Source: Nitrososphaerota archaeon
Lineage (GTDB): Archaea; Thermoproteota; Nitrososphaeria; Nitrososphaerales; Gagatemarchaeaceae
Reading direction: 5' to 3'
NCBI GenBank assembly: GCA_027887045.1
Contig: JAPCJH010000002.1
Span: 134,723-198,722, forward strand
Length of the DNA stretch: 64,000 nt
This document shows, one piece after another, positions 3,669-44,785 of this stretch (position 1 is the first letter of the stretch; each line of letters begins with the position of its first letter). A model generated the notes under the pieces. That model saw nothing but the letters and a program-made list of their open reading frames with translations. It was not told where the DNA came from and did not search any database. The translations under genes were made by a program, and so were the position numbers.

Positions 3669-3766
3669 CGGTGACTCGAGCCCCCTTCCTCGATATTTAA
3701 GTGCCTACGAAAACCCCCGCTGTATGCGGCCGATTCTGAGGACCTCACAAAGAAATCCTGCGGGCT

Positions 3767-4654: not shown

Positions 4655-4681
4655 CCGCTTTGATTAAGAGAAGGTAGGTGG

Positions 4682-4900: not shown

Positions 4901-5831
4901 GGTAAGGCTATTTCCGAGCACCAAATTGGTGTCACAGGAGACTGCGGTCAGCCACGCAATTATTGCCTTGGTCGTCCTTGTTCTCGTCGCAGGTACGGCG
5001 GGCATAGTCTACTACTTCAACGGAGGAAGCTTTCTGAACCTGAACCCAGGAGTAGCAAACAACGGCATCGCTGTCGAATCTGCGCAACTTCAGGATTATG
5101 GTCGCCTGGTCGTGAGCTTGAGCAACAACGGGCATAGCACAACGAAGACTATTCAACCCCTACAGGCTTGTTCACCTGACTACTCTTACTGTGAGAGTCT
5201 TAACGCAATCCCTAGCACATTCGTTCTTCCTCCCGGGAGTATGGTTGTCGTGAATCTAACGATATCACAATGTGCCTTCCTTTCCAACACCTTTCCTTGT
5301 TGGGGAGCCCCAGTCAATGGGTACACTTACTACTTCAAAATCGAATTGACCTTCGCCGGCGGCAACTCGGTTGACTTGCCCATCGCGGCCCACGCGTCCG
5401 GCGGGTTCCCCCTATGCAGCACCTGCTTGGGTTTTTCGCTTCCTACACAGTACAGCAGAACCATTTCCATAATGAAGGTCAGCACGTCGACTATTGGCCT
5501 CTTTTCGAATCTCACCGGACGGATGACTGTTGGACTGACGTTTGACCACTCGATTCCTGATTCCGTTACAGCCGCCTTGTTTGACGAGACGAGTGGCAAT
5601 CAGGCTAACCAAAGCCCTCTGGTATCCTCCACCAAGGGCTCTTCCACCTGTGGAACGAGCGCTGCGGGGCTCCCGTTAAATTGCGATTGCATAAACTGCT
5701 CGCCTTCCGCAACCTTCCTAGCAACTTTCTCTACTGTAACGACCGGCATTTCGTCTGGGCATTACTACATGCTGCGTGTTAGCATTCCAAGTTACGGCAA
5801 TTACTTCCTCTGGCTACAGACTCAGGGATAA
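4899..5831 (+). CDS. Secreted/cell-surface protein with N-terminal hydrophobic pilin-like segment, Ser/Thr/Cys-rich
   Basis: 310 aa. N-terminus ...AVSHAIIALVVLVLVAGTAGIVYYF is a TM/class-III-signal-like helix. The rest is Ser/Thr/Gly/Cys-rich with no recognised enzyme motif. The start is uncertain because its ATG overlaps the CAT of the divergent gene as CATG. Confidence 0.4.
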   Translation: MVRLFPSTKLVSQETAVSHAIIALVVLVLVAGTAGIVYYFNGGSFLNLNPGVANNGIAVESAQLQDYGRLVVSLSNNGHSTTKTIQPLQACSPDYSYCESLNAIPSTFVLPPGSMVVVNLTISQCAFLSNTFPCWGAPVNGYTYYFKIELTFAGGNSVDLPIAAHASGGFPLCSTCLGFSLPTQYSRTISIMKVSTSTIGLFSNLTGRMTVGLTFDHSIPDSVTAALFDETSGNQANQSPLVSSTKGSSTCGTSAAGLPLNCDCINCSPSATFLATFSTVTTGISSGHYYMLRVSIPSYGNYFLWLQTQG

Positions 5832-5910
5832 ATTATCAGGGCTTACCTTAGGCCTATGGCGAAAAGCCTGCGACCGTCCTAAATGTTCCCAGCCCGCGCC
5901 TTCACTTGCA

Positions 5911-6111
5911 ATGGCAGAAAAGAGCGAAGCCAACAAAAAGACCAAGCCACCGACACCAAAGCTGGTCGAGGCTGTGTTCACATGGAATGGCCTCGTCAAT
6001 CCAGGAAAGAGAAAGAGAGAGAATCCCGAGTTCCCCTTCAAGACAGGGGACAAGCTGCTAGTGAAGCTGGTCGGCGACACTCTGATAGTCTCGAAGGCTG
6101 ATTCCAAGTAA
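5911..6111 (+). CDS. AbrB/MazE-like small protein, paralog of 4682..4900
   Basis: MAEKSEANKKTKPPTPKLVEAVFTWNGLVNPGKRKRENPEFPFKTGDKLLVKLVGDTLIVSKADSK. It shares the FPF-x-x-G-(D/E)...V-K-(L/I) core with the 4682..4900 product. It is read from an internal ATG of the 5776 ORF. Confidence 0.4.
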   Translation: MAEKSEANKKTKPPTPKLVEAVFTWNGLVNPGKRKRENPEFPFKTGDKLLVKLVGDTLIVSKADSK

Positions 6112-6120
6112 GACGAGAAG

Positions 6121-6148
6121 GAGGAAAACGCCTCCTCCCCCCTTTTTT
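6121..6148. terminator. Bidirectional hairpin + T-tract terminator between convergent genes
   Basis: GGAGGaaaacgCCTCC stem-loop followed by cccccTTTTTT. It lies between the stops of 5911..6111(+) and 6152..6538(-). Confidence 0.5.
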
Positions 6149-6151
6149 GAC

Positions 6152-6538
6152 TTATTTTACATGAGCAACACAGGCCAGTTCAAATCGATTGTGCGCCTTG
6201 CATTGAATGAACCTGATTTTCTTCAGCCTCTTTAGTTCCGCAAGGTCCTCCAACTCCTTACCACAGCGACAACACTCAACAGCGTCATCTTCCTTCTGGA
6301 GTCCTAACCATTCATGTTCATTGCAAGATATGCAAAACGATCCAACAGGCAGGAGAATCTGGTCATCCCAGTCGGGGTATTCTTTGATGATTTTGGGAGA
6401 ATTGGTCTCATCCAAATGGACCCACCGCTTGGTAGGAAAGCCGATTTGGGCACCTCTCAGCCTGATGTATAACGTATTTGCTGGGCCTCCCAAGTTCTTA
6501 CATTTAGGATTCCCACATCGGTACCTGACGCGACCCAC
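6152..6538 (-). CDS. Hypothetical Cys-rich (multi zinc-ribbon) protein
   Basis: 128 aa with CxxC pairs (CGNPKC, CISC, CCRC, C..C..H). No enzymatic motif. Confidence 0.45.
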   Translation of the reverse strand: MGRVRYRCGNPKCKNLGGPANTLYIRLRGAQIGFPTKRWVHLDETNSPKIIKEYPDWDDQILLPVGSFCISCNEHEWLGLQKEDDAVECCRCGKELEDLAELKRLKKIRFIQCKAHNRFELACVAHVK

Positions 6539-6615
6539 AAATGGCCTTCGAAATTAGGTACTAAAAAACAGTGTAGTCACCATCACGTAATCATGGAAAA
6601 GTATCAGGTCCGGGC

Positions 6616-6954
6616 GTGCCTGCAAAGATGGAAAAACGCCGAACAAACAAACCTGCGGCTGTAGGCACAGCCGACACGGGCAGCATTGAGGCTACGCTCA
6701 GAGAGGCTGAGAGATTCCCGATTGACGAGGAATACCGGCACCTCCATAACAATCATGTCGGACACGAGGTCTGGCATTTCACCGGAAAGCGGCATGACCC
6801 TGATGGAACGGTAGTCAGGGATGGAATTCTAGTTCAAAGCTGCCTGACTTGCCGAACCGTCATCGCGATGATTCCTCTTGGTATGAGGGAATGGATGGCC
6901 CTAGATGCGGTCTTGGCAGAGGAAGAACTGGAGAGGATGGGGTATCAGCCATGA
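6616..6954 (+). CDS. Hypothetical protein
   Basis: 112-aa ORF with a CxxC (CLTC). No recognised family. Confidence 0.35.
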   Translation: MPAKMEKRRTNKPAAVGTADTGSIEATLREAERFPIDEEYRHLHNNHVGHEVWHFTGKRHDPDGTVVRDGILVQSCLTCRTVIAMIPLGMREWMALDAVLAEEELERMGYQP

Positions 6955-7238
6955 GAAAACCATGCGACCACCCCGACGTAGCAAACCATCGTGATTGGAA
7001 GCCAATGGACCCGGATTATTGGCCCCAATGGACTCTCACTGAATGGGTCAGGTGGTACGTCACTCAAGCAATCAAAGACATAGGGAGGAAGGATCTAGGT
7101 CAGGCACGACGCCAGCTGAAGGAGCTCCTCCTGCGTATGGAGTTCCGTCGTTTCGACTCGCAATGGGAGCCAGATTGGGACTCGCTGATGAAAGCTGGCC
7201 GGGTTGATTGGGAGCCTGAGTGGGATGGACACTTTTGA
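6951..7238 (+). CDS. Hypothetical Trp/Asp-rich protein
   Basis: ATG overlaps the upstream stop (ATGA). MRKPCDHPDVANHRDWKPMDPDYWPQW...WEPDWDSLMKAGRVDWEPEWDGHF. Confidence 0.3.
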   Translation: MRKPCDHPDVANHRDWKPMDPDYWPQWTLTEWVRWYVTQAIKDIGRKDLGQARRQLKELLLRMEFRRFDSQWEPDWDSLMKAGRVDWEPEWDGHF

Positions 7239-7433
7239 TAGAAAAAAAGGCCGGACCTGAGAATCTCCCTACAGGAGCAGAAACCCATCGGATTCTGAAC
7301 CTCTTCGTCCTACAAGGTGCATTGGAAACGGATGGCAAGAACAGATTCCGTTTATCGAGGCTGGCTCAAGAGACATTACTTGCAAAGGTAGAGAAACTAG
7401 CCTAACATCCCTTCCCACTCCAAGGAGGGCCAA

Positions 7434-7586
7434 TCGATGATGGAAAGAGCCGTCATCGAAACTGTCCTAGATTTTGTTTCTCCCGGCGAGGAGTTTACCG
7501 TGGAGGAGATTCAGAAGAGATGCCGAGTCTTTGGTGCAGGTGTCGAGATGATGCTCGATGACCTTTGGAAGGACATCCTACGGTGA
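7434..7586 (+). CDS. Small unlisted ORF (50 aa), possible winged-helix-like protein
   Basis: aggaggg sits 7 nt upstream of ATGATG. MMERAVIETVLDFVSPGEEFTVEEIQKRCRVFGAGVEMMLDDLWKDILR. It falls below the 60-aa cutoff of the ORF track. Confidence 0.2.
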   Translation, partial: SMMERAVIETVLDFVSPGEEFTVEEIQKRCRVFGAGVEMMLDDLWKDILR

Positions 7587-7919
7587 CAGCTTTGAATGAG
7601 GATGAGCTGGGACGACCGCGAGTCACACGCATTCCTCTTGGGCGAATGACGAATGCAGGCACGTGACATCCAAGACTGCAGCGACAATACCCAAAGGTGA
7701 ATATGGTGGTGTGAGGTTAAGAAAGTAGACGACGAGAAACACCCCGAAATAACCTAGCATGCCGAGTCCGAATCCGACGTTGTAACGTCGCTCGAACCTT
7801 CTTCTTTGTTTACTCAGGCGAAGGAATTCCTTGTCAAAGGGGTCTTCAGACCCAGGCAAACCCCGCGGAACATAGAACGCCAACGATGGCGATATTGGCA
7901 GAAGTCTCTTAAGAACCCT

Positions 7920-8150
7920 CTAGGAGAAGAGTCTCTTCAGCCCGACGTACAACACGCGCAAGATGGTCGTAGCCATCGCAGCCACCAGCAGACTTCCAAT
8001 CAATCCCCACTCGGCAAGGAACGCAAAACTCCCCGCTGTCGGTGTGTAAGGAAAGCCAGTGAAAGAATTGGGGTAGGAGGCATCGTAGAGCACAGCGGCA
8101 TAAAAGAGGACAAACAGAACGATGAAGAGCGCCAGCCACTTGTGCCTCAT
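7920..8150 (-). CDS. Small membrane protein (two TM helices), hypothetical
   Basis: MRHKWLALFIVLFVLFYAAVLYDASYPNSFTGFPYTPTAGSFAFLAEWGLIGSLLVAAMATTILRVLYVGLKRLFS is strongly hydrophobic. Confidence 0.25.
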   Translation of the reverse strand: MRHKWLALFIVLFVLFYAAVLYDASYPNSFTGFPYTPTAGSFAFLAEWGLIGSLLVAAMATTILRVLYVGLKRLFS

Positions 8151-8210
8151 GCCTTTGTTGTCTGACGCCTGTTATTTATCGTCGAACCCTCACCCTCTTT
8201 TTCAGTCAGG

Positions 8211-8510
8211 TCAAACTTTCGTGCCACTCTCGTAGCCATCTCGCCCATACTTACGTTGTCTCTCTTTCCAAGGAACTAATTGGTGAGAGAGCCAATGAGA
8301 GACCTTTGTTCTATCAGCTGAACTGACCCGATGGTATTTCAGATAATCTCTCGCATCATTGACCTTGCCGAATTGTTTCTCCACGCCGCCCCTTGGGTCA
8401 GACACATAGATGCGAACTTTGTCTCCATATTCATTTGGCGCGACCCAGACTTGGAACTCGTCATTTCCATGCGTTACCATCAAGCTGTCGTCCAATTTGC
8501 GAACACCCAC
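8211..8510 (-). CDS. Hypothetical protein
   Basis: 99-aa ORF with no recognised motif, inside the putative mobile element. Confidence 0.3.
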   Translation of the reverse strand: MGVRKLDDSLMVTHGNDEFQVWVAPNEYGDKVRIYVSDPRGGVEKQFGKVNDARDYLKYHRVSSADRTKVSHWLSHQLVPWKERQRKYGRDGYESGTKV

Positions 8511-8555
8511 CCTCCCCGATAAGCCTAGAACCTAGATATCCTTTGACCTCCTAGC

Positions 8556-8894
8556 TTGAACCTGAATAAATCGCAGACACATACTTCTTTATATGGTTGT
8601 AGCATGCTAGCTAGAAAGCGTATGAAGAGATTCGTGACGCAAAAGTTCTCGGATGAGGAATGGAAGAAATTGAAGGCAGCTATGGGTACGAGAACATGGC
8701 CTGAGTTTGTACTGGGAAGGAAGCCTAGCAGTGAACGTCCGCGCCCTGTCCATTCAAACGCTCTTGGGAAGACCAAGGTGAGGAGAACGATGATTACGCT
8801 GGAGCAGGAAGAGTTCGACATTGTTCTGAAGCGGAAAAGGACTATGACGTGGCATGAGTACATCATGTCACTCGCGGAGAGGAAGAAGAGATGA
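8556..8894 (+). CDS. Hypothetical basic protein
   Basis: 112 aa, Lys/Arg-rich. No motif recognised. Confidence 0.3.
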   Translation: MNLNKSQTHTSLYGCSMLARKRMKRFVTQKFSDEEWKKLKAAMGTRTWPEFVLGRKPSSERPRPVHSNALGKTKVRRTMITLEQEEFDIVLKRKRTMTWHEYIMSLAERKKR

Positions 8895-9006
8895 GATTGG
8901 TCGCAACCCGCCACGAACACCGCCCAGCTGATGGAGCTAGAACGTTACACGCTGCTACGGACGTTGCGACCCGTGACGCTCCCAGAATGATTCAAGGAGT
9001 TCGTCA

Positions 9007-9432
9007 TTGACTACGCCGCCAACAACAAATAAGTCTAACGGACATGTGCATGGTTGGATTCCTGTTGCCGCGTGGGGCACCCAGGATAAGTCGTACAAGA
9101 CCTTCAATTGCGAATGCAGCACAGAGAAGGTTGAGGTCTGGAGTAATGGCAAGCTCAAGAGAACAAACGTCAGTATCGGACATCGTGCTGTTCTTCCAGT
9201 AAGAGATTCACGAGGTCACAAACTGACGTGGGAGAACCTAGTTGTCAGGAAGTTCTACTTGAACAAGCCCGTGTTGCATCGGTATGAGCTCTATGAGGAC
9301 TTTGAGCCTGCACGCCTAGATACCATGATTGACGAGTTCTGGTGCCCGCGTTGTTCAGTTGCTGTTGAAAGAAAAATGAAGGTTCCTCACGAAGACGACC
9401 GAAAGTTTGAGGGTGAGGCGAGACTTCCATGA
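9007..9432 (+). CDS. Zinc-ribbon hypothetical protein, translationally coupled to downstream rep-like gene
   Basis: CECSTEK...CPRCS Cys pairs. Its stop overlaps the ATG of 9429 (ATGA). Confidence 0.4.
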   Translation: MTTPPTTNKSNGHVHGWIPVAAWGTQDKSYKTFNCECSTEKVEVWSNGKLKRTNVSIGHRAVLPVRDSRGHKLTWENLVVRKFYLNKPVLHRYELYEDFEPARLDTMIDEFWCPRCSVAVERKMKVPHEDDRKFEGEARLP

Positions 9433-10877
9433 AGCAAGCGAAGAAAGAGAAGGCCAAAACGCTCAAGATTCCAAAGGTGAAAGTTGTTCCTTCTACAAAA
9501 GTTCACAGTCTGACATTTCCAGACCAGAGAATCTATCTTGAGTCGGTCAAGCTAGACGGGCAACCAGCCTTCCTTCACAAAGACGGTCTAACTGGTAGGC
9601 TCGATTTCATGAAAGAGTTCGTGTATGATGGCATCACATATGCTCCAGCGGAGCCGTTGGGATACCTGCCGTGCGAATTCGATTCAAAGAAAGATGAGGT
9701 CAACAAACCAATCAAACTCGACGTGGTGACAAAGTTGATTTTGAACGAGTGGAAGACCTTTGTTGCCTGCGACGATACTTGGAGAATCCTAAACACGGCC
9801 TACACCGTTCTGACGTACTTGGTTTCCAAATCAATGACGACACCTTACTTGGCATACTTTGGTGACACAGAAACTGGGAAAGGTCAGAGAAAGACTTTAC
9901 ACAGGCAGATGTCATATCGAGCAAATGCTGGCGTTCTAGCAACTGCCGCCAACATATTCATCTACTCAGAGAACGTCAAAGGCACACTCATTCAAGATGA
10001 GTTCGAATCGGTAGAGAGAGATAGGGACCTTCAAGCTCTTTTCAAAGAAGGATACAAGCAGGGCGCTTCAGTGATGAGAATTCGAACCAACAGAGATGGG
10101 GTTCCGATTCAGCATGACTATCAGGTGTTCTCATGCAAGATTGTAGTCAGCAACTACGCGATTCGCAACAAAGCCGTACTAGAACGATTCATTGTCGAAC
10201 TTACGACCAAGGAGAAGCCGAAGAAAGATGAGTTTGACAGGTCCTCAGATCTAAAGAGATTTGCTGAAATTAGAAAGCAATTGATGACTTGGAGACTTCA
10301 GACTATTTGGAACAGTCTGCCTGACTTAGACATATCGTTCACGGGGCGAGCCAAAGAACTCTACAAGCCTCTCTTGCAAGCCGTGCATGGTACCAGTCTG
10401 TACGAGCCACTGTTGGAGTTTCTAACAACGCTAGAGGCCAAAGCGATAGAGGAGGCGAAGAGCAGTTTGACTGCTCTTGTCACGAAGGCCTGCGTGAAAC
10501 TTCGCGAGAAACAGTGTCCGACAGAAGAACTCAGAACAGTGCTGGCAGATTACATGAATGGAACAATTGTCATGAAGTCGGACGTTCCTTATGGCATACG
10601 CAGTAGTGAGTATGGAACGATTACTGACATGCAGATTGTCAATGAGATAAAATTGAACTTGGGAGGGAAGAAGGCGAGGCCATATGTGCATACATCTGAA
10701 GTGCTCCCGACATCAGGAGAAGTCAGGCAAGTTAGAGGATGGGACACTGATGCAACGCGCCTTCTCAACATGGTCAAGAAGTACCACTTGGAAGGAGACG
10801 CTGACATCGGCGAAGAACTGAAAGAACTTGAGTACTCCGTTGCTGTGAACCAAGAGGCTGTCAAAGGGTTCGGTTAG
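9429..10877 (+). CDS. Putative replication initiation protein (primase/helicase-like) of integrated element
   Basis: 482 aa. It has a degenerate P-loop-like YFGDTETGKGQRKT. It is the largest ORF of the element and is immediately followed by an iteron array, so the call rests on context. No confident family match. Confidence 0.4.
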   Translation: MKQAKKEKAKTLKIPKVKVVPSTKVHSLTFPDQRIYLESVKLDGQPAFLHKDGLTGRLDFMKEFVYDGITYAPAEPLGYLPCEFDSKKDEVNKPIKLDVVTKLILNEWKTFVACDDTWRILNTAYTVLTYLVSKSMTTPYLAYFGDTETGKGQRKTLHRQMSYRANAGVLATAANIFIYSENVKGTLIQDEFESVERDRDLQALFKEGYKQGASVMRIRTNRDGVPIQHDYQVFSCKIVVSNYAIRNKAVLERFIVELTTKEKPKKDEFDRSSDLKRFAEIRKQLMTWRLQTIWNSLPDLDISFTGRAKELYKPLLQAVHGTSLYEPLLEFLTTLEAKAIEEAKSSLTALVTKACVKLREKQCPTEELRTVLADYMNGTIVMKSDVPYGIRSSEYGTITDMQIVNEIKLNLGGKKARPYVHTSEVLPTSGEVRQVRGWDTDATRLLNMVKKYHLEGDADIGEELKELEYSVAVNQEAVKGFG

Positions 10878-11090
10878 GACGAGTACGGGTTCGGCTTTAG
10901 ACCGAGTACTGGTTCGTGGTGGAAGTACGACGAGTACGGGTCAAATCTTGGTACTCCCCTACTTTCACCATAAAGATGTGGGGGAATCATCTAGAAATGT
11001 CTTTCACTAATAGTCGTCTAAGGTATACTTCTCGTACTCCTCGTACTTAGGTAAGTACGGGTACAAGTACGGGTTCTAATTACTGTCAGT
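10878..11090. repeat. Iteron-like array of GAGTACGGGT/AAGTACGGGT repeats (direct and inverted)
   Basis: gacGAGTACGGGTtc (10878), accGAGTACtGGTtc, gaAGTACGacGAGTACGGGTca, the inverted ctcGTACTCctcGTACTta, and gtAAGTACGGGTacAAGTACGGGTtc (11050-11082). The array sits directly 3' of the rep-like gene. Confidence 0.5.
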
Positions 11091-11349
11091 CTCCGTTCCG
11101 AGGAAGGAGGGAGCCGAAACCTCTCGGACAACTCCGACTCTCTACTCTATAGAACGCCCCGTGCCTAAGTCACCGCAAGACCGTGAATCTGAGAGAAGAA
11201 ATCCAAAAATGTTCGGCCATGTAGCCTAAGTCATGGAATGGAATTGCGAAGACGAGCTTGGCGAGGATGTCAGCAACCTCTGGCACTACCACCGTGGTAC
11301 GTCTCGTAGAACTGAATTTGCCGCGCCTCTCAATGAACTTGGCGAAGAA

Positions 11350-11937
11350 CTAGCTGATGCGCTGTACGGGTACTGAGTCTGAGGTTTCCACCACGGATTT
11401 AGGCACCAGTTTCCTGATTAGAACCGCACCACCTTCGATGGTGAATGAAAGGGGCTCTTTCCTGGCAAAGGGCAGCTTGTCTCTTAGCTCGTACGGTGTG
11501 TGAATCAACCAAGAGCTGTCAATAATGTATTCTGAGGACCCCTTCTTGATTTCTAGCGTGTGGTCGTTGACGGTGAAGTCCAGCTTGTCACCTGGAGAGA
11601 AGGGCAGACGGTTTTGATACCTGTTGTAAACACGAACGCAGAAGTCGTGGGTGAGGATGGGATGGACGTTTGACACTCCTTTTCTGACGCACCTCATCAA
11701 CTCTGACTTAGCGGCAGAAACAGCTGCTGCTTCGACTGTTCTCATCCCTTTGCACGAATGACAAGGGAGGAGACCTGTGCCTCCAAAGTACACGCTCCCT
11801 GAGTCCTTGCAAGTGCCGCACTTTGCATGTATGTTGCGAAGTGGGTCCTTCCACTTGGGTACGTTGGAACCGTGCCAGAAGGGAGACGGCCGAGGGGCTT
11901 GACGCTCGAGTGCTGGCTTCGTGATTGATGCCCGCAA
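11350..11937 (-). CDS. Hypothetical Cys-rich protein
   Basis: 195 aa. CGTCKDSG...CHSCKG zinc-ribbon-like motifs. Unassigned C-terminal beta-rich region. Confidence 0.4.
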   Translation of the reverse strand: MRASITKPALERQAPRPSPFWHGSNVPKWKDPLRNIHAKCGTCKDSGSVYFGGTGLLPCHSCKGMRTVEAAAVSAAKSELMRCVRKGVSNVHPILTHDFCVRVYNRYQNRLPFSPGDKLDFTVNDHTLEIKKGSSEYIIDSSWLIHTPYELRDKLPFARKEPLSFTIEGGAVLIRKLVPKSVVETSDSVPVQRIS

Positions 11938-12340
11938 ACGCTTCCTTCAAAGTGACTAGGCAACTTAAGCTAGAGGGGCGCATATTGAAGTGGCAAGCCG
12001 AAGAGCGCGTGACGCGTAAGGCTGTCAGAGGAAGGAAGGTGGGTGGAGGCTCTAAGAGTGTCAAGCTGCCCTATTGACAGACCAAAGGCTATTTCGTGGT
12101 GCAAAAACACAAAATCTCACTACCGTATTTTCTTAAGCGACACCCGCCTCCTACTAAGGGTGCCGAGTAAAATCTCTGCGAGGGCTTGGGAGCACTCTCC
12201 ACAAGATAGTCTACGGGTGTATGATACTTCAAATACAAATGTGTAGTTTGTATGGTACCGTAGTTTTGTATTGCGTTTGCAAGCGCCCTACATTTCCCCC
12301 ACAATGTAGGGTATGTAAGGTGGTGAGAACGCTGAGTGAC

Positions 12341-13147
12341 TTAGCTGAACTTCATGTTGCGCAGTTGGGCTCTGGCCTCATCACCCGCTGACTCCTCCAT
12401 GTATCCTTCGATCTCTTTGGTAGAGGCATGGTGAGTGATGGTTCTGATTTGCGACGAGGTGTAGCCAAGCTTGCCTAGATACGTAATGGATGAGAACCTG
12501 AGAGAGTGAGTGTTGGTTCCAAGTTTCTCCCTAGAGAAGTTGATGTACCTAGAGGGTGACAGCTTTCCTCTCTTGAAGGCTTCCTGAAGATATGGCACGT
12601 CAGATTCTGGCAGGTCAGCGGGGATGTCTATGTCCCGCATCTCAACGTCAGCAGGGTCAGGGTCATAGTGCTGGCATGGGCAGTCCTTCACTAGGCAACG
12701 TCCTCGAGCACCAACGCCTACAACCTCGTGTCCTGACTTGACCCCAGTCTTAACGTGGTGACAATGAGCACAAACAGGCCTGTACTTTCTGACACGTACT
12801 TGATTCACGAAGTTCCTCTTGGGCGCGTATCCAACCCAGAGACGTAGACCGTCCAACGCCTCCTGAGCGCGGCAGAGATTCTGAAGCTGAATGAGAAGGG
12901 TCGAGGCCAAAGCCAGCATGGTAGGAGCGAAGGGAGACTTCCAATCGAACTCGTCAGGTGGAGCTTGACACTCCGTTCTGTACTTTGCCATTAGAGCAAC
13001 AATATTCTTTGCGGTCTCAACAAAGTCGAGCTTCTTGCCCCACCTGATTTTGCGGTGTTCTTTGATTCGTCTGAACTCTTTGCGTCTGTGGTCAATCTTT
13101 GGAGGCCTGTGATGAACTGTCAGTGCTGGCGCGGCAAGTTCACTCAT
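12341..13147 (-). CDS. Divergent tyrosine-recombinase-like protein with Cys/His-rich insertion
   Basis: C-terminus NTHSLRFSSITYLGKLGYTSSQIRTITHHASTKEIEGYMEE matches tyrosine recombinase box II (H-x-L-R ... H-x-x-x-x-x-Y). The middle carries CAHCHH...CLVKDCPCQH. Only 268 aa, which is short for an integrase. Confidence 0.5.
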   Translation of the reverse strand: MSELAAPALTVHHRPPKIDHRRKEFRRIKEHRKIRWGKKLDFVETAKNIVALMAKYRTECQAPPDEFDWKSPFAPTMLALASTLLIQLQNLCRAQEALDGLRLWVGYAPKRNFVNQVRVRKYRPVCAHCHHVKTGVKSGHEVVGVGARGRCLVKDCPCQHYDPDPADVEMRDIDIPADLPESDVPYLQEAFKRGKLSPSRYINFSREKLGTNTHSLRFSSITYLGKLGYTSSQIRTITHHASTKEIEGYMEESAGDEARAQLRNMKFS

Positions 13148-13341
13148 CTCGGCACCTTTGGAACGCGAACGATGTATGTGGGGTAGAATCTGTAGGTGTA
13201 GTATCTGTCAAGATTCGACTTCATGAACTCCAAGAGGTCTGACGGAACAAGAGCCTTTTGGATTCTGTGTCGTCTGCCAGTTTTGGTGACCCTCTCTTTC
13301 CACGGCAGGTGAAAGATTGCCTGCGGAGTCTCTTCGGACAA
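13144..13341 (-). CDS. Small hypothetical protein overlapping recombinase-like gene start (possible excision/DNA-binding accessory)
   Basis: 65-aa basic ORF whose stop overlaps the ATG of 12341..13147 by 4 nt. Confidence 0.3.
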   Translation of the reverse strand: MSEETPQAIFHLPWKERVTKTGRRHRIQKALVPSDLLEFMKSNLDRYYTYRFYPTYIVRVPKVPR

Positions 13342-13461
13342 ACTATCTTCGCTTAGTCAGGTTCCAAATATTCGTATGTAACAAAAAGGGTTCGTGGTAC
13401 GGTGCGGCCACGAAGAGCACTTTCCTGTCTGTAGCGGCCTACCTTTTCACTCAAGAACCCT

Positions 13462-13809
13462 CTAACTGTCCCAGTCGAATTGGACGCTTAGCTGTTCTGT
13501 CGTAAGGTCTGAACCTGCCGTACCCTTGGGCGGGTCTTCAATCTCGATTGGAGGCGACGCGAACTTCAGAATCTCAGCTTCTATCTCGTCTGGCTCGCCG
13601 AGGTGAATCAGGACATGCGGCTCGCGTTTGTCGACGTAATCGTCGCACAGAGTGGTCAACCTGACGACAGTCCAGTGCTTCAAACAGACTGGAATCCCTC
13701 CCTGAATCACGCGTTCGTGGTCGCATTCATCACAACGCGCGCCTGCAGCAATCGAGTCGGTGGGCTCTCTGTACCAGCGGTAATTTGGAGGCCTCCTTGG
13801 CTCACTCAC
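13462..13809 (-). CDS. Zinc-ribbon hypothetical protein
   Basis: CDECDH...CLKHW motif. 115 aa. Confidence 0.35.
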   Translation of the reverse strand: MSEPRRPPNYRWYREPTDSIAAGARCDECDHERVIQGGIPVCLKHWTVVRLTTLCDDYVDKREPHVLIHLGEPDEIEAEILKFASPPIEIEDPPKGTAGSDLTTEQLSVQFDWDS

Positions 13810-14142
13810 TCTCTCCCCACTTTATTCAACAAGTCGCCCGACCGTTTCCTAGTAGTCGCAGTTCTTGCATCTTCTCGGAGGAAGGAAGCTGCTTATGGCG
13901 ACGCTGTCACGGGCTGCCTCTAGGTCTACGAGCGAATCATCTTCCCGGCTTTCATCTTTGCTCATACACAACGAAGAGGAATCCCGACATATTAGCCCCA
14001 CCTACAAAGACAGCAGTAGGACAGGGAGAGAGTCAAGTGAATCTATGAACACTTCCTCACATTCACCCGCGACTCCCTCCGTCCCAAAAGGATGCCCAAA
14101 AAGACCGCTCCTCCTTTAGGCGAATTCTAACTAATTTGCCCG

Positions 14143-14510
14143 ATGAAGAAGACCTGCCCCCACTGCGGCCACATGGTCAGCGACGAATGGCACACGCGGT
14201 TCGGAATCGAGAGGCTCGACAGGGGCTGGGTGGAGGCCGGGATTCCGGTGGTCGGCAGAGTGAAGGTACATAGAGAGGCGCTGGCGATGGTGTACGTCTG
14301 CGAGTTGACGAACCTGCCTTTCCTCGTTGTGCTGCCTGGTGCGAAGTAACCCTCGCGGGAACGTCTCTCGAGGTCATCATCCCTAAGAGCTTCGCAGAGG
14401 CTTTAGGCATTCGGGACGGGGATGCTGTCAACTGGGACATAAAGACCTCAAAGGGAGCGAAAGTCTTGGTTCTGTCAAAGATAGCTGAGGAGCTCGGAAC
14501 AGCAATCTAG
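14143..14510 (+). pseudogene. Zinc-ribbon + AbrB-like domain ORF apparently split by a frameshift
   Basis: Frame 1 is MKKTCPHCGHMV...(68 aa, stop at 14349). The adjacent frame continues without ATG as ...TLAGTSLEVIIPKSFAEALGIRDGDAVNWDIKTSKGAKVLVLSKIAEELGTAI*. That is a clear AbrB/MazE-type swapped-hairpin sequence ending at 14510. Confidence 0.3.
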
Positions 14511-14515
14511 TGCCT

Positions 14516-15109
14516 TCAATTTGGTAGCTTGGCTTGACCACAACAGGGTTTGCCAGCGTCTTTGCTTTTCTTGTAAACCTCGTAGATGCCCCATAGTAAC
14601 AAAACTGCACCAATGGCGGCGAGGAGTTCACCCAAAAGGAAACCACGAAGTGTAGCTGCAAATGTTGCTGGAGACGCGCGCTTGAGAACTATGCACAAGT
14701 CAATGACACCTCCGAGTATCAGCGACCCAGCAACAGGTACCAAGAATGTGCCTCGCTCGGATGACAAAAGCTTCTTGTGGGGCCACCCACTTTTCTTGAC
14801 CTCTTCCTCGACCTTTTCGTCGAAGAAGCAGTGCAGCTTTGGAACTGTTTTATCCGCAGGCGAGACCTCATAGCGCAGCGCGGCACTTGATAGCCGCGCC
14901 CAAGCAATTGCCCGAAGCAAAGCGTAGACGGAAACCCCAATGGTGAGGCTCAACAAGGGATAAAGAATCAAAGGGTGTCCTCGAAAAGCAGAGAACTCAG
15001 GAATAGTGGCCGCAGCTAGTGCTAGGGAGGCTGTTGCAAGTTGATTCACGCTTGAACGGTAGGTCTCAAGAAGAGTCTTGCGAGAATCCTCTGTTGACCC
15101 GTTACTCAT
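14516..15109 (-). CDS. Hypothetical integral membrane protein
   Basis: 197 aa with 4-5 hydrophobic helices (ATIPEFSAFRGHPLILYPLLSLTIGVSVYALL...). Confidence 0.4.
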   Translation of the reverse strand: MSNGSTEDSRKTLLETYRSSVNQLATASLALAAATIPEFSAFRGHPLILYPLLSLTIGVSVYALLRAIAWARLSSAALRYEVSPADKTVPKLHCFFDEKVEEEVKKSGWPHKKLLSSERGTFLVPVAGSLILGGVIDLCIVLKRASPATFAATLRGFLLGELLAAIGAVLLLWGIYEVYKKSKDAGKPCCGQAKLPN

Positions 15110-15176
15110 TCAAGATTCTTCAGGGAGACCTTTACTTTAACGCTCTTGGGAAAACAAAAAGTGGAGAGGGCCGCGT

Positions 15177-16451
15177 TCAGGCCCTCTTCTTTGACTTAAG
15201 TGCTACGAGTTTGTCGAACTCGGCCAAGTCCTGTTCCGCTTGCACCTCAGCGCTTTGCTGTGCCAATTTCTCGGCAACGAGTTCATGCGCCAGTTCGTCC
15301 GCGACCTTTTCGGTGGGCTTTCCGAACTTCTCAGTGAAGTAGGCATCCCACTTTGTGATTGTGGCCTGTAGGTTCTTGTTCTCGGCCAGTACAGACTGGG
15401 TGTAGGTAGAGACCCGTGTCAACTCATTTTTCGTCTCACCTAGTTTCGCTGTTGCCGCCTCAAGCTTGGTCGTGTCTTGAAGGACTAGGAGTTGTGGCTC
15501 GCCTTTGTGGTACGCCTCAACATAGTCCTGTTGGGTGTACTGGTTATTGTAGACCCCGCCCATGTAGCCACGGTGCCCCGTCATCACCTCTACCATCTCA
15601 GGTGGGACGCGGAGCTTCATCTTCGAGGTGAAGTATTTTCTGAGAAGGTGAAGGTGGTAGGCTGACCTGCCTGTCCTCTTGTCCTTAACGTACAGACCAG
15701 CCTCGCGGATTACCTGTCCGAAGGCTTTGTTCGCCGAGTCATACGTGAAGGGGAAGACTTGGTCAGCGGTTGGAGGTCTTCTTGGTGTTGTCTGCTGCCG
15801 CTCCTTCCTCACCATGTTCTTGCCGCGCCTGAAGAGCCCGCTTGCGAGGTAGTGGTCTCTTACTTTCAGCCACTCGTTGAGCGCCTCAACAGCTTCAGAG
15901 CTCAGGAAGCTGAAGTACGAGTGGCCCTCCTTTGCGGTCTCTGCCCTTACCGACACCATAGGGGCGAACGGCTCCGAACTGCCTGACTCTGGCACCAGCT
16001 TCACGTCACTCAGCGTGAGTTGTAGGGCCTCGCCGACGCGGATACCTGAACTCTCTAGGAAGAGTATCAGTGCTTTCAGCTTGATGTCCCTTGAGTGCAG
16101 GAGGATTGCGCGGAGCTTTTCCCTAGTCAGTAGGCCGTCTTCGGTTTGAGCCTCGCCCATACCCTTCGGCATCATGCCACGGAGCGCTCGCCTGTCTTTG
16201 GTTCCTAGTTCGACGTCGCAGCAGTAGAGTAGGAACTCCTTAGCGGCAGTGAGATAGGCGTGTAGGGTCCACGGAGGCTTGGTGCCCCAGCTCTGGACGA
16301 ATTTGGCTAGGTCATCGAAGCCGTCACGCTTGCCAGCTTTGAAGTCGGCAATGTACCGAGCAGCCAGTTGTTCAAGTTGGGTGAGACCAGTCTTGCCACG
16401 CCCCAAGGTGATTCCGAAGACGCAGGCCAGGAACGCCTTCACACCGCACAT
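15177..16451 (-). CDS. Tyrosine-type site-specific integrase/recombinase (phage integrase family)
   Basis: Box I ...LESSGIRVGEALQLTLSDV. HxLR motif SAYHLHLLRKYFTS. Catalytic Tyr region MTGHRGYMGGVYNNQYTQQDY. The true start may be internal to the 424-aa ORF. Confidence 0.8.
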   Translation of the reverse strand: MCGVKAFLACVFGITLGRGKTGLTQLEQLAARYIADFKAGKRDGFDDLAKFVQSWGTKPPWTLHAYLTAAKEFLLYCCDVELGTKDRRALRGMMPKGMGEAQTEDGLLTREKLRAILLHSRDIKLKALILFLESSGIRVGEALQLTLSDVKLVPESGSSEPFAPMVSVRAETAKEGHSYFSFLSSEAVEALNEWLKVRDHYLASGLFRRGKNMVRKERQQTTPRRPPTADQVFPFTYDSANKAFGQVIREAGLYVKDKRTGRSAYHLHLLRKYFTSKMKLRVPPEMVEVMTGHRGYMGGVYNNQYTQQDYVEAYHKGEPQLLVLQDTTKLEAATAKLGETKNELTRVSTYTQSVLAENKNLQATITKWDAYFTEKFGKPTEKVADELAHELVAEKLAQQSAEVQAEQDLAEFDKLVALKSKKRA

Positions 16452-35310: not shown

Positions 35311-35404
35311 GGTAGCCCGGCCTGGAATCGAACCAGGGTCACCGGCTCCAAAGGCCAGTATGCTTGGCCGCTACAATCGGCAGAGTGATCTTCCACCGGG
35401 CTGC
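35311..35404 (-). tRNA. tRNA-Gln(UUG)-like gene with about 18 extra nt in the 5' half (possible non-canonical intron) or tRNA-derived att remnant
   Basis: Minus strand reads AGCCCGG-TG-[GAAGATCACTCTGCCGATTGTAGCGGCCAAGCATA]-CTGGC-CTTTGGA-GCCGG-TGAC-CCTGG-TTCGATT-CCAGG-CCGGGCT-A-CCA. The acceptor is perfect 7 bp. The anticodon arm has U33, UUG and R37. The T-arm and encoded CCA are canonical. The D-region is 18 nt too long to fold canonically. Confidence 0.4.
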
Positions 35405-41014: not shown

Positions 41015-42352
41015 TTGGATTACCTCCTCTGGTCACTGCTTTCGCTGGACGCCCTCGTTGGGATAGCTTGGCTTCTCACGCTTCTATATCAGGTGAGAGA
41101 GCTATCTAGCTATCCGCAATTCTTCCTAAGGAAGGGGGAAGGCTCGAACACCACCCTCTTGAGTGTGATTATTCCGGCTAGGAACGAGGAGAAAAGGATC
41201 GGACGTTGCCTGGAATCGGTTTCACAACAGAGGCGCGTGCGGTCGGAGATCATCGTCGTAGACGACGAATCGAACGACCGGACAACAGAAATCGTCGACG
41301 GGTTCGCTCGGAAAGACAACAGGGTGCGGTTGGTCCGAGGTGCGATGCTACCAGAAGGTTGGGTCGGGAAGAACTGGGCGTGCCATCAAGGATTTCTCGC
41401 CAGCAGCGGGGAATGGTTGCTCTTTCTCGACTCGGATTCATTTCTCCACCCTGAAACCGTGACCTCGTCCTTGGCTCGCGTGGAACAGAAGGGCTTGCAC
41501 GCGCTCTCAATATTCCCCGCCGAGGACGTCCAGGGCTTCTGGGCAAAGATGGTCTGGCCAGTGGTGGCGGCGATGATCAGGACCCTCTACCCTCTCCGCG
41601 AAGTGGCAGACCCGAAGGGAAGGAGTGCTCTGGTTTTCGGTGCCTACGTCTTGATCGAGCGGGCTTCGTACCTAGCGATCGGCGGCCATGAGAGGGTGAG
41701 GTCCGAGTTGGTGGAGGACAAACAGATCGGCGCGAATCTGAAATCGGCACGAGTGCCATACGAGGTCGTACTGGGACGCGGAATGGTCGTTTCCGGGCTC
41801 GCCAGCGGTTTTGGAAGAATCTGGAATTCAATTAGGCGAATCGCCAGCAATCCGACGAGGGGTAGCATGGGGAAGGGGCTGGGATTCGTGACCGCGGGGA
41901 TATTCATGTTCATTTTCCCTTTCGCGGTTCTCATGCTCTCCGTCGCAGAGGGAGAAGTACCCTTGGAGGCGGTGGTCGTGGCATTGATCTCGTTCTTCTC
42001 TCCCGCAGCAATCGTGACTTTCGACATCTGGAACGGCGCCAGACCTTCCTACCTCTATTCGCTACTCGCAACTCTCGGAGGGACACTAATCGTTCTCGGA
42101 GTCTTGAGAGAGATCTTGAAATCGTCCGACTTAAGTTGGCGTGGAAGAACTTATGTTCTGGGAAGTCTTCGATTGAAGACCACCCTTCAGGGCATCAGCT
42201 CCGAGGATTGGGCCCTCCGTCGCTCCGTTCCCCATCACGGCTTCACACCGCCCCGCGCTCCTGCCCGAACCATAGGCAGACATGGTATCTTCCCGCGCCT
42301 CTCGATGTTGATTGCCGCATTGAAGTCGCGGTCGAGCCGGCACCCACATTGA
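41015..42352 (+). CDS. Membrane glycosyltransferase family 2; 3' end probably altered by adjacent IS remnant
   Basis: LLSVIIPARNEEKRIGRCLESV...IIVVDDESNDRTTEIV...LFLDSDS (GT-A DxD) plus C-terminal TM helices. The last roughly 40 codons run antisense through the TnpB zinc-ribbon fragment and look non-native. Confidence 0.7.
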   Translation: MDYLLWSLLSLDALVGIAWLLTLLYQVRELSSYPQFFLRKGEGSNTTLLSVIIPARNEEKRIGRCLESVSQQRRVRSEIIVVDDESNDRTTEIVDGFARKDNRVRLVRGAMLPEGWVGKNWACHQGFLASSGEWLLFLDSDSFLHPETVTSSLARVEQKGLHALSIFPAEDVQGFWAKMVWPVVAAMIRTLYPLREVADPKGRSALVFGAYVLIERASYLAIGGHERVRSELVEDKQIGANLKSARVPYEVVLGRGMVVSGLASGFGRIWNSIRRIASNPTRGSMGKGLGFVTAGIFMFIFPFAVLMLSVAEGEVPLEAVVVALISFFSPAAIVTFDIWNGARPSYLYSLLATLGGTLIVLGVLREILKSSDLSWRGRTYVLGSLRLKTTLQGISSEDWALRRSVPHHGFTPPRAPARTIGRHGIFPRLSMLIAALKSRSSRHPH

Positions 42353-43330
42353 GGGCATAGCCAGCTCCTTTCGGTCACCTTCAGCTTCCGGTTGACTTGA
42401 TGGCACTTGGAACACTCCTTCGACGTGTTGCGAGGGTTCACGAACTCCACCTGGACTCCGGCCCAAGTGGCCTTGCACGCGATCTGCTGCTGCAGGAGTC
42501 TGAACGGCCAAAGATTAGCTCTCCCTCTTGAGTCTCTCCCCTTACCGTTTCCCCTGGCGTGTGTCTTTCGAATCCCCTTGAGTCGTTCGAGGAAGATAGA
42601 TTCCCAGTTCTCCAGGGTCTTCTAAATTATCTGCTTGGAGACGAGGTTGAGAGTTTGCTTGACGCGCTCCCTCTCCCTCCTTGAGCTAGCGAACTTCCGC
42701 TTGAGCTTTTCGTCGTGGGGATGTCTCGCGTAGAATTCGCTTCGCCTGACGCCCTACTCGGTGTGGATTCGGGCGACACTGGAAAGGTCGATTCCTATTC
42801 CGTCGCTACCCACTATTGACCTGTGGTTGAGGTCGTAGCCGACCCTTCTCAGAGGCGACATGACATCGGTTTCCTTCGAGAAGGCGATGATGATCTTGGA
42901 GTCGGTCACGGTCACGGAACCCCGCTTGAGCGTCGTGTCCATGAGGAAGGAGCGCTGCCAGTCGCCGTACTTGAGGGGTATCAGAACGCGAAGTCCCTTC
43001 TTGTTCGGAAGGCTGAGTATACCGTAGTTCAGGGAATAGTTAGCTGAGTCCATCTTGAGCTGAGCTTGGAGGCGAATGGCCTCCTATTCCATCGATGGTG
43101 CTTCTTTACTATCGACCACCCGACCTCTGCGACGGAGTACGGATAGGGCGACACTATGCCATATCTTTCTTGGAAGTCCTTCTAGATCCTGTCGCGGACC
43201 CTCAGCCGCCCTTTGATGTTCTCCGCGAAGCAGAGCTTGATCGCGTGGTTGACCATCAACCGGAACGTTTCGAGCAGTTCTCTCGTTTCGTGTGTGGGCT
43301 CGTAACTGAAGGTGACCGCCTTGAGAGAAC
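42235..43330 (-). pseudogene. tnpB: IS200/IS605-family TnpB (OrfB) pseudogene, multiply frameshifted, no tnpA
   Basis: N-terminal frame RSLKAVTFSYEPTHETRELLETFRLMVNHAIKLCF. Next frame YGIVSPYPYSVAEVGWSIVKK. Then LRRVGYDLNHRSIVGSDGIGIDLS (RuvC-I-like). Then CSKCHQVNRKLKVTERSWLCPQCGCRLDRDFNAAINI (zinc ribbon plus RuvC-III). These lie in three to four different frames. Confidence 0.6.
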
Positions 43331-43487
43331 GCACTTGGGCAAGGATAACTTCCTGAAAAATAAAGGCGGGCGAATATTTCTAATTATTAGTGGGGACCTC
43401 CATGAAACTAATCGGATCAGTCTTAACGACCGAAGACTCTCAGAACCCTTACAAGCCAGCACGACCAGTAACGACGGAGTGAAGTGA

Positions 43488-43979
43488 ATGGGCGCTACCG
43501 GGGTTCTCCTGAGGAAATTACGTGCGAAGATTTCCGATGAGCCAACAGGCTTCAGCTGGGTCGAAGAGGGGAAGCTCGCCGCATCTGGTCTCCCAGCATC
43601 ACGGTCGCAAGTTCGATGGCTAACCGAACATGGGGTAAACAGTATCCTGTCGCTCACCGAGGCGCCGCTTCCAGAGCGATGGATCGAGGGCGTAGGAATT
43701 GATTACAAGCACGTTCCGATGAAAGACCACGGACAGCCCAGCGTCGAGGAACTGCGTGAGGCAACGAGCTATGTGAACGGTGAACGTGGTCGCGGGCGCG
43801 TAGTTCTTGTCCATTGCCTCGCGGGGAAGGGAAGGACGGGCTGCGTGCTCGCCACGCTGATGATTCTGGACGGGAAACCGGCCGGAGAGGCGATCAAAAT
43901 TATTAGGACTAAACGCCCGGGTTCCATCGAGTCCGGTCAGGAAAACGCCCTCTTCGACTTCGCAGCCAGCGTAGGATAA
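43488..43979 (+). CDS. Dual-specificity/tyrosine protein phosphatase
   Basis: VLVHCLAGKGRTGCVLATLMI is the HCxxGxxR(S/T) P-loop. Confidence 0.75.
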   Translation: MGATGVLLRKLRAKISDEPTGFSWVEEGKLAASGLPASRSQVRWLTEHGVNSILSLTEAPLPERWIEGVGIDYKHVPMKDHGQPSVEELREATSYVNGERGRGRVVLVHCLAGKGRTGCVLATLMILDGKPAGEAIKIIRTKRPGSIESGQENALFDFAASVG

Positions 43980-44101: not shown

Positions 44102-44785
44102 GTGCACGGAGGAGTGATGATCTGCGGCCTTCCTGACAGCGGAATGGTCGCGAAGATTGCCGTCGATCGAATTATAGAAGCGGTGGGCGCCAAAATCGTC
44201 GCAGACGTCTACAGCCCCAGTCTTCCTCCGCAGGTCGGAATAAACAAAGGGATTGTCGAACTAATGGGCCATCATCTTTTTGCCTCCGATAAGGGGAAAC
44301 TGCTCATCTACACAGGGGATTCTCAACCGGTCGACCCACCTGGGGCTTTCGCGCTCTCCGAACTCGTGGTAAAGTTAGCAAGAGAGTACCGCGTGCGTGA
44401 GCTGATCGTCATCGCCGCGATGATAAGAGGAACTCAAGTTGCGAAACCGGCCGTCTTCGTTTCGGGGACGAGCCGGCGTCTTATCGACGAATACGTGGCC
44501 CTGGGAGCCGGTAAGACGAGCCCTGGGATGGTCACTTGGATGCACGGGGTGATAATGGGGGAAGCGCTGAAACACGGGGTGCAGGCCGTTTGCCTTTCAG
44601 CGGAGACGCAGGGGGAAGTCCCCGATCCAACCTCTTCAGAATCGGCTCTGGCCATACTGGAGAAGCGTCTCTCCTTGAAGTTGCGGTTTCGGTCCAGGGC
44701 CTCTAAGCGGGAGAGGGTCGCCACGAAGAAAATCCCTGAGCTGAGAAAGCCGGAGAAGAGCGCGGAACCGACGTACATCCGATAG
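44102..44785 (+). CDS. PAC2-family (proteasome-assembly-chaperone-like) protein, putative
   Basis: N-terminus VMICGLPDSGMVAKIAVDRIIEAV resembles the PAC2/DUF75 hallmark (G.PG.G.VG..A...LI). 227 aa. Confidence 0.4.
   Translation: MHGGVMICGLPDSGMVAKIAVDRIIEAVGAKIVADVYSPSLPPQVGINKGIVELMGHHLFASDKGKLLIYTGDSQPVDPPGAFALSELVVKLAREYRVRELIVIAAMIRGTQVAKPAVFVSGTSRRLIDEYVALGAGKTSPGMVTWMHGVIMGEALKHGVQAVCLSAETQGEVPDPTSSESALAILEKRLSLKLRFRSRASKRERVATKKIPELRKPEKSAEPTYIR

Follow-up and report, generated by a model that had tools for sequence, protein, structure and literature searches.

A 64-kb stretch of contig JAPCJH010000002.1 from a Nitrososphaerota archaeon (positions 134,723 to 198,722; hereafter the window) contains a GT2 glycosyltransferase gene whose 3′ end overlaps, on the opposite strand, the remains of a gene for the nuclease TnpB. 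The locus very probably records the insertion of a non-autonomous 1.29-kb element, with tnpB as its only gene, antisense into the last ten codons of the GT2 gene; the element is now a fossil (Table 1). A decayed TnpB element at the GT2 3′ end had been proposed in an earlier note on this DNA, and the element boundaries, the gene order in relatives and the rejoined GT2 frame supported this. The assignment to the IS200/IS605 family made in the same note was contradicted by the ends found in the element family, which are terminal inverted repeats flanked by 8-bp target-site duplications.

The GT2 open reading frame (ORF; 41015–42352) was annotated with 445 amino acids, identical to NCBI MDA4128711.1, and matched Pfam PF00535 (E=6e-28). 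The best NCBIfam matches (HpnB, 144 bits; CruG, 102 bits) were both far under the equivalog cut-offs and allow a family-level assignment only. Fifteen orthologues with 43–56% identity and lengths of 371–401 amino acids were aligned (alignment A2). All 15 stopped 1–19 variable residues past an invariant WRGRTY. W375, R376, G377, R378 and Y380 were invariant in this alignment, and the window protein kept all invariant orthologue positions. Its last 65 residues were found in none of the 15 orthologues. The Y380 codon (TAT, 42152–42154) was the last triplet before the element. Tail codons 1–26 were opposite the right end of the element and its omega-RNA region, and the last 39 were opposite the tnpB codons for the zinc ribbon and the RuvC-III motif; all 65 tail codons (42155–42349) are element-derived. 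The roughly 40 antisense codons noted earlier correspond to the 39 that overlap the tnpB coding sequence, and the full tail is longer.

The native GT2 C-terminus was displaced and not deleted. Past the left end of the element, the plus strand reads CTTACAAG CCA GCA CGA CCA GTA ACG ACG GAG TGA, with codons for Y K P A R P V T T E and a stop. Joining ...TGG CGT GGA AGA A in front of the element to CT TAC AAG... behind it restored the frame and yielded a protein of 389 amino acids ending in WRGRTYKPARPVTTE. Orthologues of 388–389 amino acids make this the modal length, and several orthologues also contained WRGRTYK. The recovered stop (43480–82) was 5 nt upstream of the ATG of a phosphatase gene (43488), compared with 1–3 nt in the relatives L028 and L029, where the phosphatase gene directly followed GT2; the element intervened in the window only. 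The full gene order was compared with L028, the longer of these two syntenic relatives. It was the same as in the window (hexapeptide transferase, GT4, OB-fold protein, GT2, phosphatase, PAC2 and periplasmic binding protein), with the 1.29-kb element as the sole difference. By this comparison, KPARPVTTE and the stop survive beyond the left end, about nine poorly conserved GT2 residues were exchanged, and the conserved 380-residue core through WRGRTY is intact. The earlier suggestion that the insertion replaced the native C-terminus thus held for about nine residues of the product; the native codons themselves survive at 43450–43482. The uninterrupted GT2 3′ end would read ...ACTTACAAGCCAGCACGACCAGTAACGACGGAGTGA, and the empty-site junction would read ...GGAAGAACTTACAAGCCAGC...

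The TnpB relic was confirmed on the minus strand at the position noted earlier. After repair of the frame, the product had 366 amino acids and matched Pfam PF07282 (Cas12f1-like TNB; E=2e-22, residues 278–344), NCBIfam guided_TnpB (NF040570; 99.4 bits against a cut-off of 100) and structures of TnpB and Cas12f in the PDB. There were 460 homologues, the best with 77% identity over 99% of the length, and nearly all came from Nitrososphaerales/Thaumarchaeota metagenome-assembled genomes (MAGs) or soil metagenomes. Fragments in three to four frames had been reported. Minus-strand translation of 42150–43480 showed two frames: the first ran from the GTG at 43334 to about 43061, and the second from there to the TGA at 42235–42237. 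They were separated by a 1-nt deletion between 43061 and 43060, inside an ATG codon (ATG to A-G), where four homologous elements read CTNATGCT and the window CTCA-GCT. The repaired frame also contained three in-frame stops, all TAG (43182–84, 42754–56 and 42622–24), which aligned with Y, Y and E in an alignment with 14 homologues. In the same alignment, the window copy departed at 11 of the 144 positions that were invariant in the other 14 sequences, compared with 1–8 for intact homologues. With its frame shifted by one lost nucleotide and cut by three TAG codons, and with more changes at invariant residues than intact homologues show, a sign of relaxed constraint, the window tnpB has no intact ORF and is a dead pseudogene, but a lightly decayed one, with a single indel.

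The motifs that were invariant in the family (GYDLN, LERL, DRD(L/F)NAA and CxxC...CxxC) were all retained in the window copy. The zinc ribbon was kept as CSKC...CPQC and the RuvC motifs as GYDLN (D168), FLERL (E250) and DRDFNAA (D337), in agreement with the zinc ribbon and RuvC-III motif recognised earlier; the D, E and D were invariant in the family. E250 and D337 aligned with motifs RuvC-II and RuvC-III of Cas12f structures, and D168 was assigned as a catalytic residue from family invariance. The GIDL segment previously taken as RuvC-I-like is not the RuvC-I motif; it is part of GIGIDLSS, which sits in a variable stretch, and the motif invariant in the family is GYDLN.

The peptide RCEAVMGNGATEGPILGADALKGG in a third frame (42280–42179) was related to a C-terminal extension (...GTDEAVKGNETTTAPILRAEAPKLGG) with which many TnpB homologues end; P0006, P0013, P0014 and P0049 ended like the window copy, with ...GG(VKP). 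This stretch is conserved right-end and omega-RNA DNA and not a further piece of the tnpB gene: in DNA alignments its nucleotides were conserved, and a length difference of 1 nt determined whether the ORF continued across it. Among the tnpB 3′ ends of the related loci L001–L032 (alignment A5, columns 150–160), this difference within the omega-RNA region set the protein end, either at ...GG(VKP) after about 362–366 amino acids or about 25 residues further through the RNA scaffold (387–400 amino acids; ...DEAVKGNE..PILRAE..K.GG). The extension is probably conserved for the RNA and not for the protein. Frameshifts or internal stops were also observed in 8 of 25 full-length family copies, about one third (genome loci L019–L026). 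Six of these eight came from long-read 'MFD' bins, and some may reflect sequencing errors and not true pseudogenes; L021 includes a masked run of N.

The element extends beyond the interval 42235–43330 given in the earlier note. Similarity to 26 related elements broke off at 42155 and 43447, enclosing 1293 bp, within the 1188–1391 bp of the family. At the right end, homology to L001–L004 and 20 further genome loci continued for about 80 nt beyond the tnpB stop and ended with ...CGAAGACTTCCCAGAAC at plus-strand position 42155. The left end began with GGTTCTGAGAGTCTTCGG at 43447 and was homologous to the left end of L004, the start of which was fixed by its target-site duplication. These termini formed inverted repeats in the window (GGTTCTGAGAGTCTTCGG, 43447 down to 43430; CGAAGACTTCCCAGAAC, 42171 down to 42155). 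Within single elements (L001, L002, L004, L007 and L011), the left end matched the reverse complement of the right end at 17–20 of 22 positions, compared with 11–13 of 22 at the next-best sites. The sequence of the repeats varied between elements and stayed matched inside each. Because the match takes in the outermost bases (GGYTCTG/CAGARCC) and the hairpin loops, the ends are true inverted repeats.

The subterminal hairpins that were looked for were present at both ends, AGTCTT-CGGTCGTT-AAGACT (43438–43419) on the left and GTCTTC-loop-GAAGAC (42165–42180) on the right. An AT-rich, promoter-like stretch (TTTATTTTT) was located about 30 nt upstream of the tnpB GTG. In this region of the window (43350–43395, minus strand), about 30 additional AT-rich bases (CACTAATAATTAGAAATATTCGCCCGCC TTTATTTTT) separated the left-end hairpin from the start of tnpB; at this place other family members (left ends of L004 and L001 compared) had a compact CATGGGTGCTTAAAT box. 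The insert is partly palindromic and could serve as a bidirectional TATA-like element, including towards the displaced phosphatase gene. Neither a further copy nor a solo end or another omega-RNA was found in the 64-kb window by tblastn, blastn, end-pattern search or covariance model.

The right end contained a predicted omega-RNA scaffold, consistent with the omega-RNA-like relic suggested earlier. When the terminal 240 nt from 23 elements were aligned, the RNAalifold consensus had 41 pairs, 16 of them with compensatory changes. Of these, the 31 pairs within the 3′-most 160 alignment columns were counted against shuffled and slid-partner controls: 94.4% of cells were paired (82.1% after shuffling; 32–53% with slid partners), and 87 cells had double changes (29 after shuffling). 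A covariance model built from family sequences matched the window copy with 130.5 bits at 42154–42287, its sole match in the window, and 54 of 54 near-invariant positions were retained. No Rfam family matched the right end. Since the fold of the window right end alone was not exceptional (z = −0.9), the structure is argued from covariation, which points to a scaffold that is conserved in the family and undamaged in the window copy. In IS605-type TnpB architecture, the guide is the DNA just outside the right end (PMC10691335). By analogy, the guide of the window copy would be read from the flank ATAAGTTCTTCCACGCCAAC.

Target-site duplications were examined in 27 loci by setting the right end as ...CAGARCC and comparing the next 8 nt with the sequence before the left end. 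Exact 8-bp duplications abutted both ends in eight loci (L004, CCAGAGAA; L006, TAAATAAG; L007, CTGACAAA; L010, TCCTACGT; L014, AATTAAAT; L021, TAAAATAG; L023, TTTATCAT; L024, GGAGGAAT), and L026 matched at seven of eight positions. Control 8-mers 8–100 nt further out recurred in 0–1 of the 27 loci. These repeats are 8-bp target-site duplications. Upstream of the left-hand duplication, K at −2 and G at −1 were present in all nine duplicated loci and in the window; the triplets were TTG, TGG, CGG, TTG, TGG, AGG, ATG, ATG and TGG, and TGG in the window. The KG motif was thus 8 bp off the left end and did not abut it. A symmetric target motif, which for a DDE dimer would place CM behind the duplication, fitted only 4 of 10 sites and was rejected; the motif is asymmetric. 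In the window, the left-hand 8-mer CTTGTAAG was preceded by TGG on the element strand. The right junction read ...CAGAAC-A-TAAG where ...CAGAACC-CTTGTAAG was expected, equivalent to a loss of about 4 nt and one substitution.

Table 1. Features of the tnpB-only element, the interrupted GT2 gene and a second region of the window.
Feature	Position	Strand	Evidence or remarks
C-5 cytosine DNA methylase	2559–3668	−	PF00145 E=5e-44
482-aa ORFan	9429–10877		In the 2559–16451 stretch, with several small Cys-rich ORFs
Tyrosine (phage-type) integrase	15177–16451	−	PF00589 E=6e-10
Native GT2 glycosyltransferase part, codons 1–380	41015–42154	+	PF00535; orthologue alignment
Predicted guide-source flank ATAAGTTCTTCCACGCCAAC	42135–42154	−	Directly 3′ of the right end; antisense to GT2 codons for SWRGRTY
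Predicted omega-RNA scaffold / right end	42154–42287	−	Covariation and covariance model; covers the last 15 tnpB codons and 80 nt beyond the stop
Chimeric GT2 tail, 65 codons and TGA	42155–42352	+	Antisense to the element right end and tnpB 3′ end
Whole insertion element relic, tnpB-only	42155–43447	−	1293 bp
tnpB pseudogene	42235–43334	−	GTG start 43334; TGA stop 42235–37; 1-nt deletion; 3 TAG
Left end: terminal inverted repeat, hairpin, AT-rich promoter-like stretch	43335–43447	−	Comparison with family left ends
Left-end-side target copy	43448–43458	.	CTTACAAG on the plus strand 43448–55, then CCA 43456–58 (TGG on the element strand)
Displaced native GT2 3′ end	43450–43482	+	TAC AAG CCA GCA CGA CCA GTA ACG ACG GAG TGA
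Dual-specificity (PTP-SAK) phosphatase gene	43488–43979	+	Pfam PF22784 E=1e-22; start Met conserved

The ends and duplications set the family apart from the elements with which tnpB is usually associated. IS200/IS605, IS607 and classical tnpB-only elements (IS1341, IS891-like) lack terminal inverted repeats and target-site duplications (PMC4810608, PMC3627910, PMC3119063, PMC13565253). IS200/IS605 elements have asymmetric ends with subterminal hairpins on one strand and insert directly 3′ of a target of 4–5 nt. By its ends, the window family does not fit IS200/IS605: its elements have hairpins, but they are bounded by terminal inverted repeats and flanked by duplications of 8 bp. The protein shares the Cas12f1-like TNB zinc ribbon and the motifs RuvC-II and RuvC-III with ISDra2 TnpB (PDB 8bf8/8exa) and its miniature Cas12f relatives. 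As in IS605-type obligate mobile element-guided activity (OMEGA) systems, a structured RNA crosses the tnpB 3′ end and ends at the right boundary. In contrast to OMEGA systems of the IS200/IS605 type, the window copy is a pseudogene, the family ends are inverted with 8-bp duplications instead of asymmetric hairpin ends without duplication, and its KG, resembling a target-adjacent motif (TAM), is 8 bp off the left end and not abutting. IS1341-group elements of Haloquadratum and Natronomonas (PMC3119063) likewise have tnpB as the sole gene, no linked tnpA and numerous divergent copies within a genome, of which a large fraction are frameshifted or interrupted by stops. They were described without inverted repeats or target duplications (PMC3119063, PMC3627910), whereas the window family has both. 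An IS607 serine recombinase was not present adjacent to the window tnpB, and unlike IS607 the element has inverted repeats and duplications.

As reported earlier, no tnpA was found near the window element; all neighbours were housekeeping genes syntenic with relatives. Y1 HUH TnpA was absent from the window neighbourhood and from positions beside tnpB in loci with gene calls, and related Nitrososphaerales loci were tnpB-only in 30 of 30 cases. No viral relatives of the element were found.

Elements of another kind offer closer parallels. Altae-Tran et al. 2023 (PMC10691335) described six branches of TnpB with a link to DDE transposases. Inverted terminal repeats were present in all six, and some solo TnpBs were bounded by the same ends as DDE-linked ones. 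The window family shares with these branches symmetrical ends, a tnpB 3′ end less than 250 bp from the transposon end, and solo copies that presumably moved in trans; it differs in that no DDE transposase was beside tnpB in the loci examined here. The transposase families named in that text and in a later review were IS630, and ISL2 and IS1031. The ISfinder families IS630, ISL2 and IS1031 produce 2–3-bp duplications, not 8-bp ones. ISL3 ends begin with GGCTCTTCG and are flanked by 8-bp direct repeats (PMC6305408, ISArsp7; PMC11448079). The resemblance of ISL3 to the window family, whose elements are 1.2–1.4 kb long, is limited to the 8-bp target repeats and six of seven terminal bases (GGCTCTT, compared with GGYTCTG in the family), the repeats differing further in. 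ISL3 elements have a gene for a DDE transposase but neither TnpB nor an omega-RNA. ISL3 is the closest published end type found for the window family, but it serves as a lead only, because ISH6 and the ISPna2 group of IS1595 also pair ends starting with GG with 8-bp repeats. Fanzor proteins are TnpB-type nucleases in elements with inverted repeats and target-site duplications as well (PMC3627910, PMC13565253), but they are eukaryotic or viral and larger, with no sign of a direct relationship to the window element. The principle of TnpB within inverted-repeat carriers linked to DDE transposases is therefore already known.

Under the preferred reading of a tnpB-only insertion, the family would move as double-stranded DNA, with the target cut at an 8-bp stagger. 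Given terminal inverted repeats of the form GGYTCTG...CAGARCC and target-site duplications of 8 bp, the most likely mover would be a transposase of the DDE type acting in trans; the ends most resemble those of ISL3. TnpB with its omega-RNA would cut empty sites bearing KG directly 5′ of the 8-mer, with a guide starting with the duplicated 8 bp, and such cutting would favour the copying of the element back in. With about 4 nt lost at the right-end junction and a dead tnpB, the window copy would be an immobile fossil, which the host would tolerate since the exchange affected no more than a short and variable tail of GT2.

Several observations weigh against this reading. No transposase adjoined tnpB in the loci with gene calls, and an autonomous partner was not detected in a metagenome scan with the 25-nt end consensus (0 matches). 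A scan with a 24-mer of the GT2 flank likewise yielded 0 matches to an uninterrupted allele of the window GT2. Both ends carry subterminal hairpins, as in Y1-mobilised elements. The duplication was not clean in 18 of 27 copies, including five with clear inverted repeats (L001, L002, L005, L031 and L032). In the window itself, the second target copy is a 4-nt remnant, TAAG, and the 8-bp duplication is deduced from relatives together with an assumed small deletion. An assembly error could account for the single tnpB frameshift but not for the three nonsense codons.

Some of these observations would fit a classical IS200/IS605 element of the IS1341 group, with tnpB only, a Y1 HUH TnpA acting in trans on single-stranded DNA, and insertion 3′ of a short motif without duplication. 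The protein is a typical TnpB, the hairpins are subterminal at both ends, archaea commonly carry tnpB-only copies (PMC3119063), the left-end side has a short conserved motif (KG), and around two thirds of copies lack a clean duplication. The mutual inversion of the ends, which includes the loop sequences and the outermost GGYTCTG/CAGARCC, is at odds with this mode of movement, as are the exact 8-bp duplications in 8 of 27 loci (0–1 of 27 in controls), the distance of 8 bp between KG and the left end, and the lack of tnpA near any copy. We consider Y1-mediated movement quite unlikely. It is very unlikely that the locus was co-opted, with an intact omega-RNA or antisense transcript regulating the GT2 transcript (and that of the phosphatase) or with a functional 65-residue tail. 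The 134 nt of the right end keep 54 of 54 near-invariant positions while the protein decayed elsewhere, and the AT-rich promoter-like stretch remains upstream of tnpB, so that any transcript from there would be antisense to the GT2 3′ end. With few mutations overall, an unmutated 134 nt is expected by chance, and the last 120 coding nt have only one change. The insertion was in no second genome, giving no evidence of conservation, and the tail is basic, Pro/Arg-rich and built from antisense DNA.

The source is a MAG, and several related copies from long-read bins show possibly erroneous frameshifts, which raises the question of a chimeric join or sequencing errors. Both flanks continue the synteny of two independent relatives, the split GT2 frame rejoins exactly, the element has both ends and a duplication remnant, and three nonsense codons caused by substitution are atypical of indel errors; an assembly artefact is thus extremely improbable. 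Recoding, in which a full TnpB would still be made by reading TAG as an amino acid (e.g. pyrrolysine) together with a programmed −1 frameshift, is hardly credible and was dropped as an explanation. All three internal stops are TAG and the remaining ORF, including the catalytic residues, is well preserved, but TAG is a common true stop here. Of the 79 long ORFs of the window, 26 terminate with it; adjacent genes become fused if it is translated; and the PAC2 gene (44102–44785) ends at TAG exactly at the end of its orthologue. The TAGs stand for Y, Y and E, leaving no single amino-acid meaning; each is one substitution from TAY or GAG, and given those codons three TAGs would arise by chance about once in four. 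A tRNA-Pyl was not found in the window, the frameshift is a plain 1-nt deletion in an ATG codon, and there are excess changes at invariant residues.

A more far-reaching, tentative reading joins an omega-RNA-guided nuclease with 8-bp-duplicating transposition, in a combination so far undescribed: the guide would begin with the duplicated 8-mer, the asymmetric KG directly 5′ of it would be the TAM and a DDE-type mover such as ISL3 would act in trans. We regard this as unlikely. In such a system, the choice of insertion site or the survival of insertions may be tied to TnpB targeting and, in the extreme form, TnpB itself may take part in integration.

Elsewhere in the window, the stretch 2559–16451 consisted mostly of unannotatable ORFs, with a C-5 cytosine DNA methylase at one end and a tyrosine (phage-type) integrase at the other, and has the look of a plasmid or provirus that has integrated. 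On the minus strand, 35321–35377 matched the Rfam tRNA model in part and at threshold (29.2 bits; positions 9–63 of the model), with no ARAGORN call; it could be a tRNA fragment, an attachment-site remnant or an intron-containing archaeal tRNA. In two of the related loci, tRNA T-arm-like sequences (GGTTCAAATCCCGG and GGTTCGAATCCCGTC) were observed soon after the element (L007, about 2740–2800; L021, about 2700–2800). Neither ARAGORN nor Rfam called a tRNA gene downstream of these right ends, and the sequences may belong to intron-containing archaeal tRNAs.

The deposited 445-amino-acid glycosyltransferase MDA4128711.1 is a gene–transposon chimera, and the true product ended at 389 amino acids. 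The phosphatase gene that normally follows GT2 was pushed 1.3 kb away. For the source genome, the finding matters mainly for annotation, as the locus is an ordinary gene-disruption fossil that can mislead annotators. The family to which the element belongs is moderately unusual. The abundant archaeal genes annotated as 'IS605 OrfB' are not safely assumed to sit in IS200/IS605-type elements. Because it combines inverted repeats with 8-bp duplications, and because the duplication sets its TAM-like motif off from the left end, the family provides a testable case for RNA-guided homing in a target-duplicating transposon, and its intact members (e.g. P0006, 365 amino acids), with a defined 126-nt scaffold, are candidates for compact genome editing.

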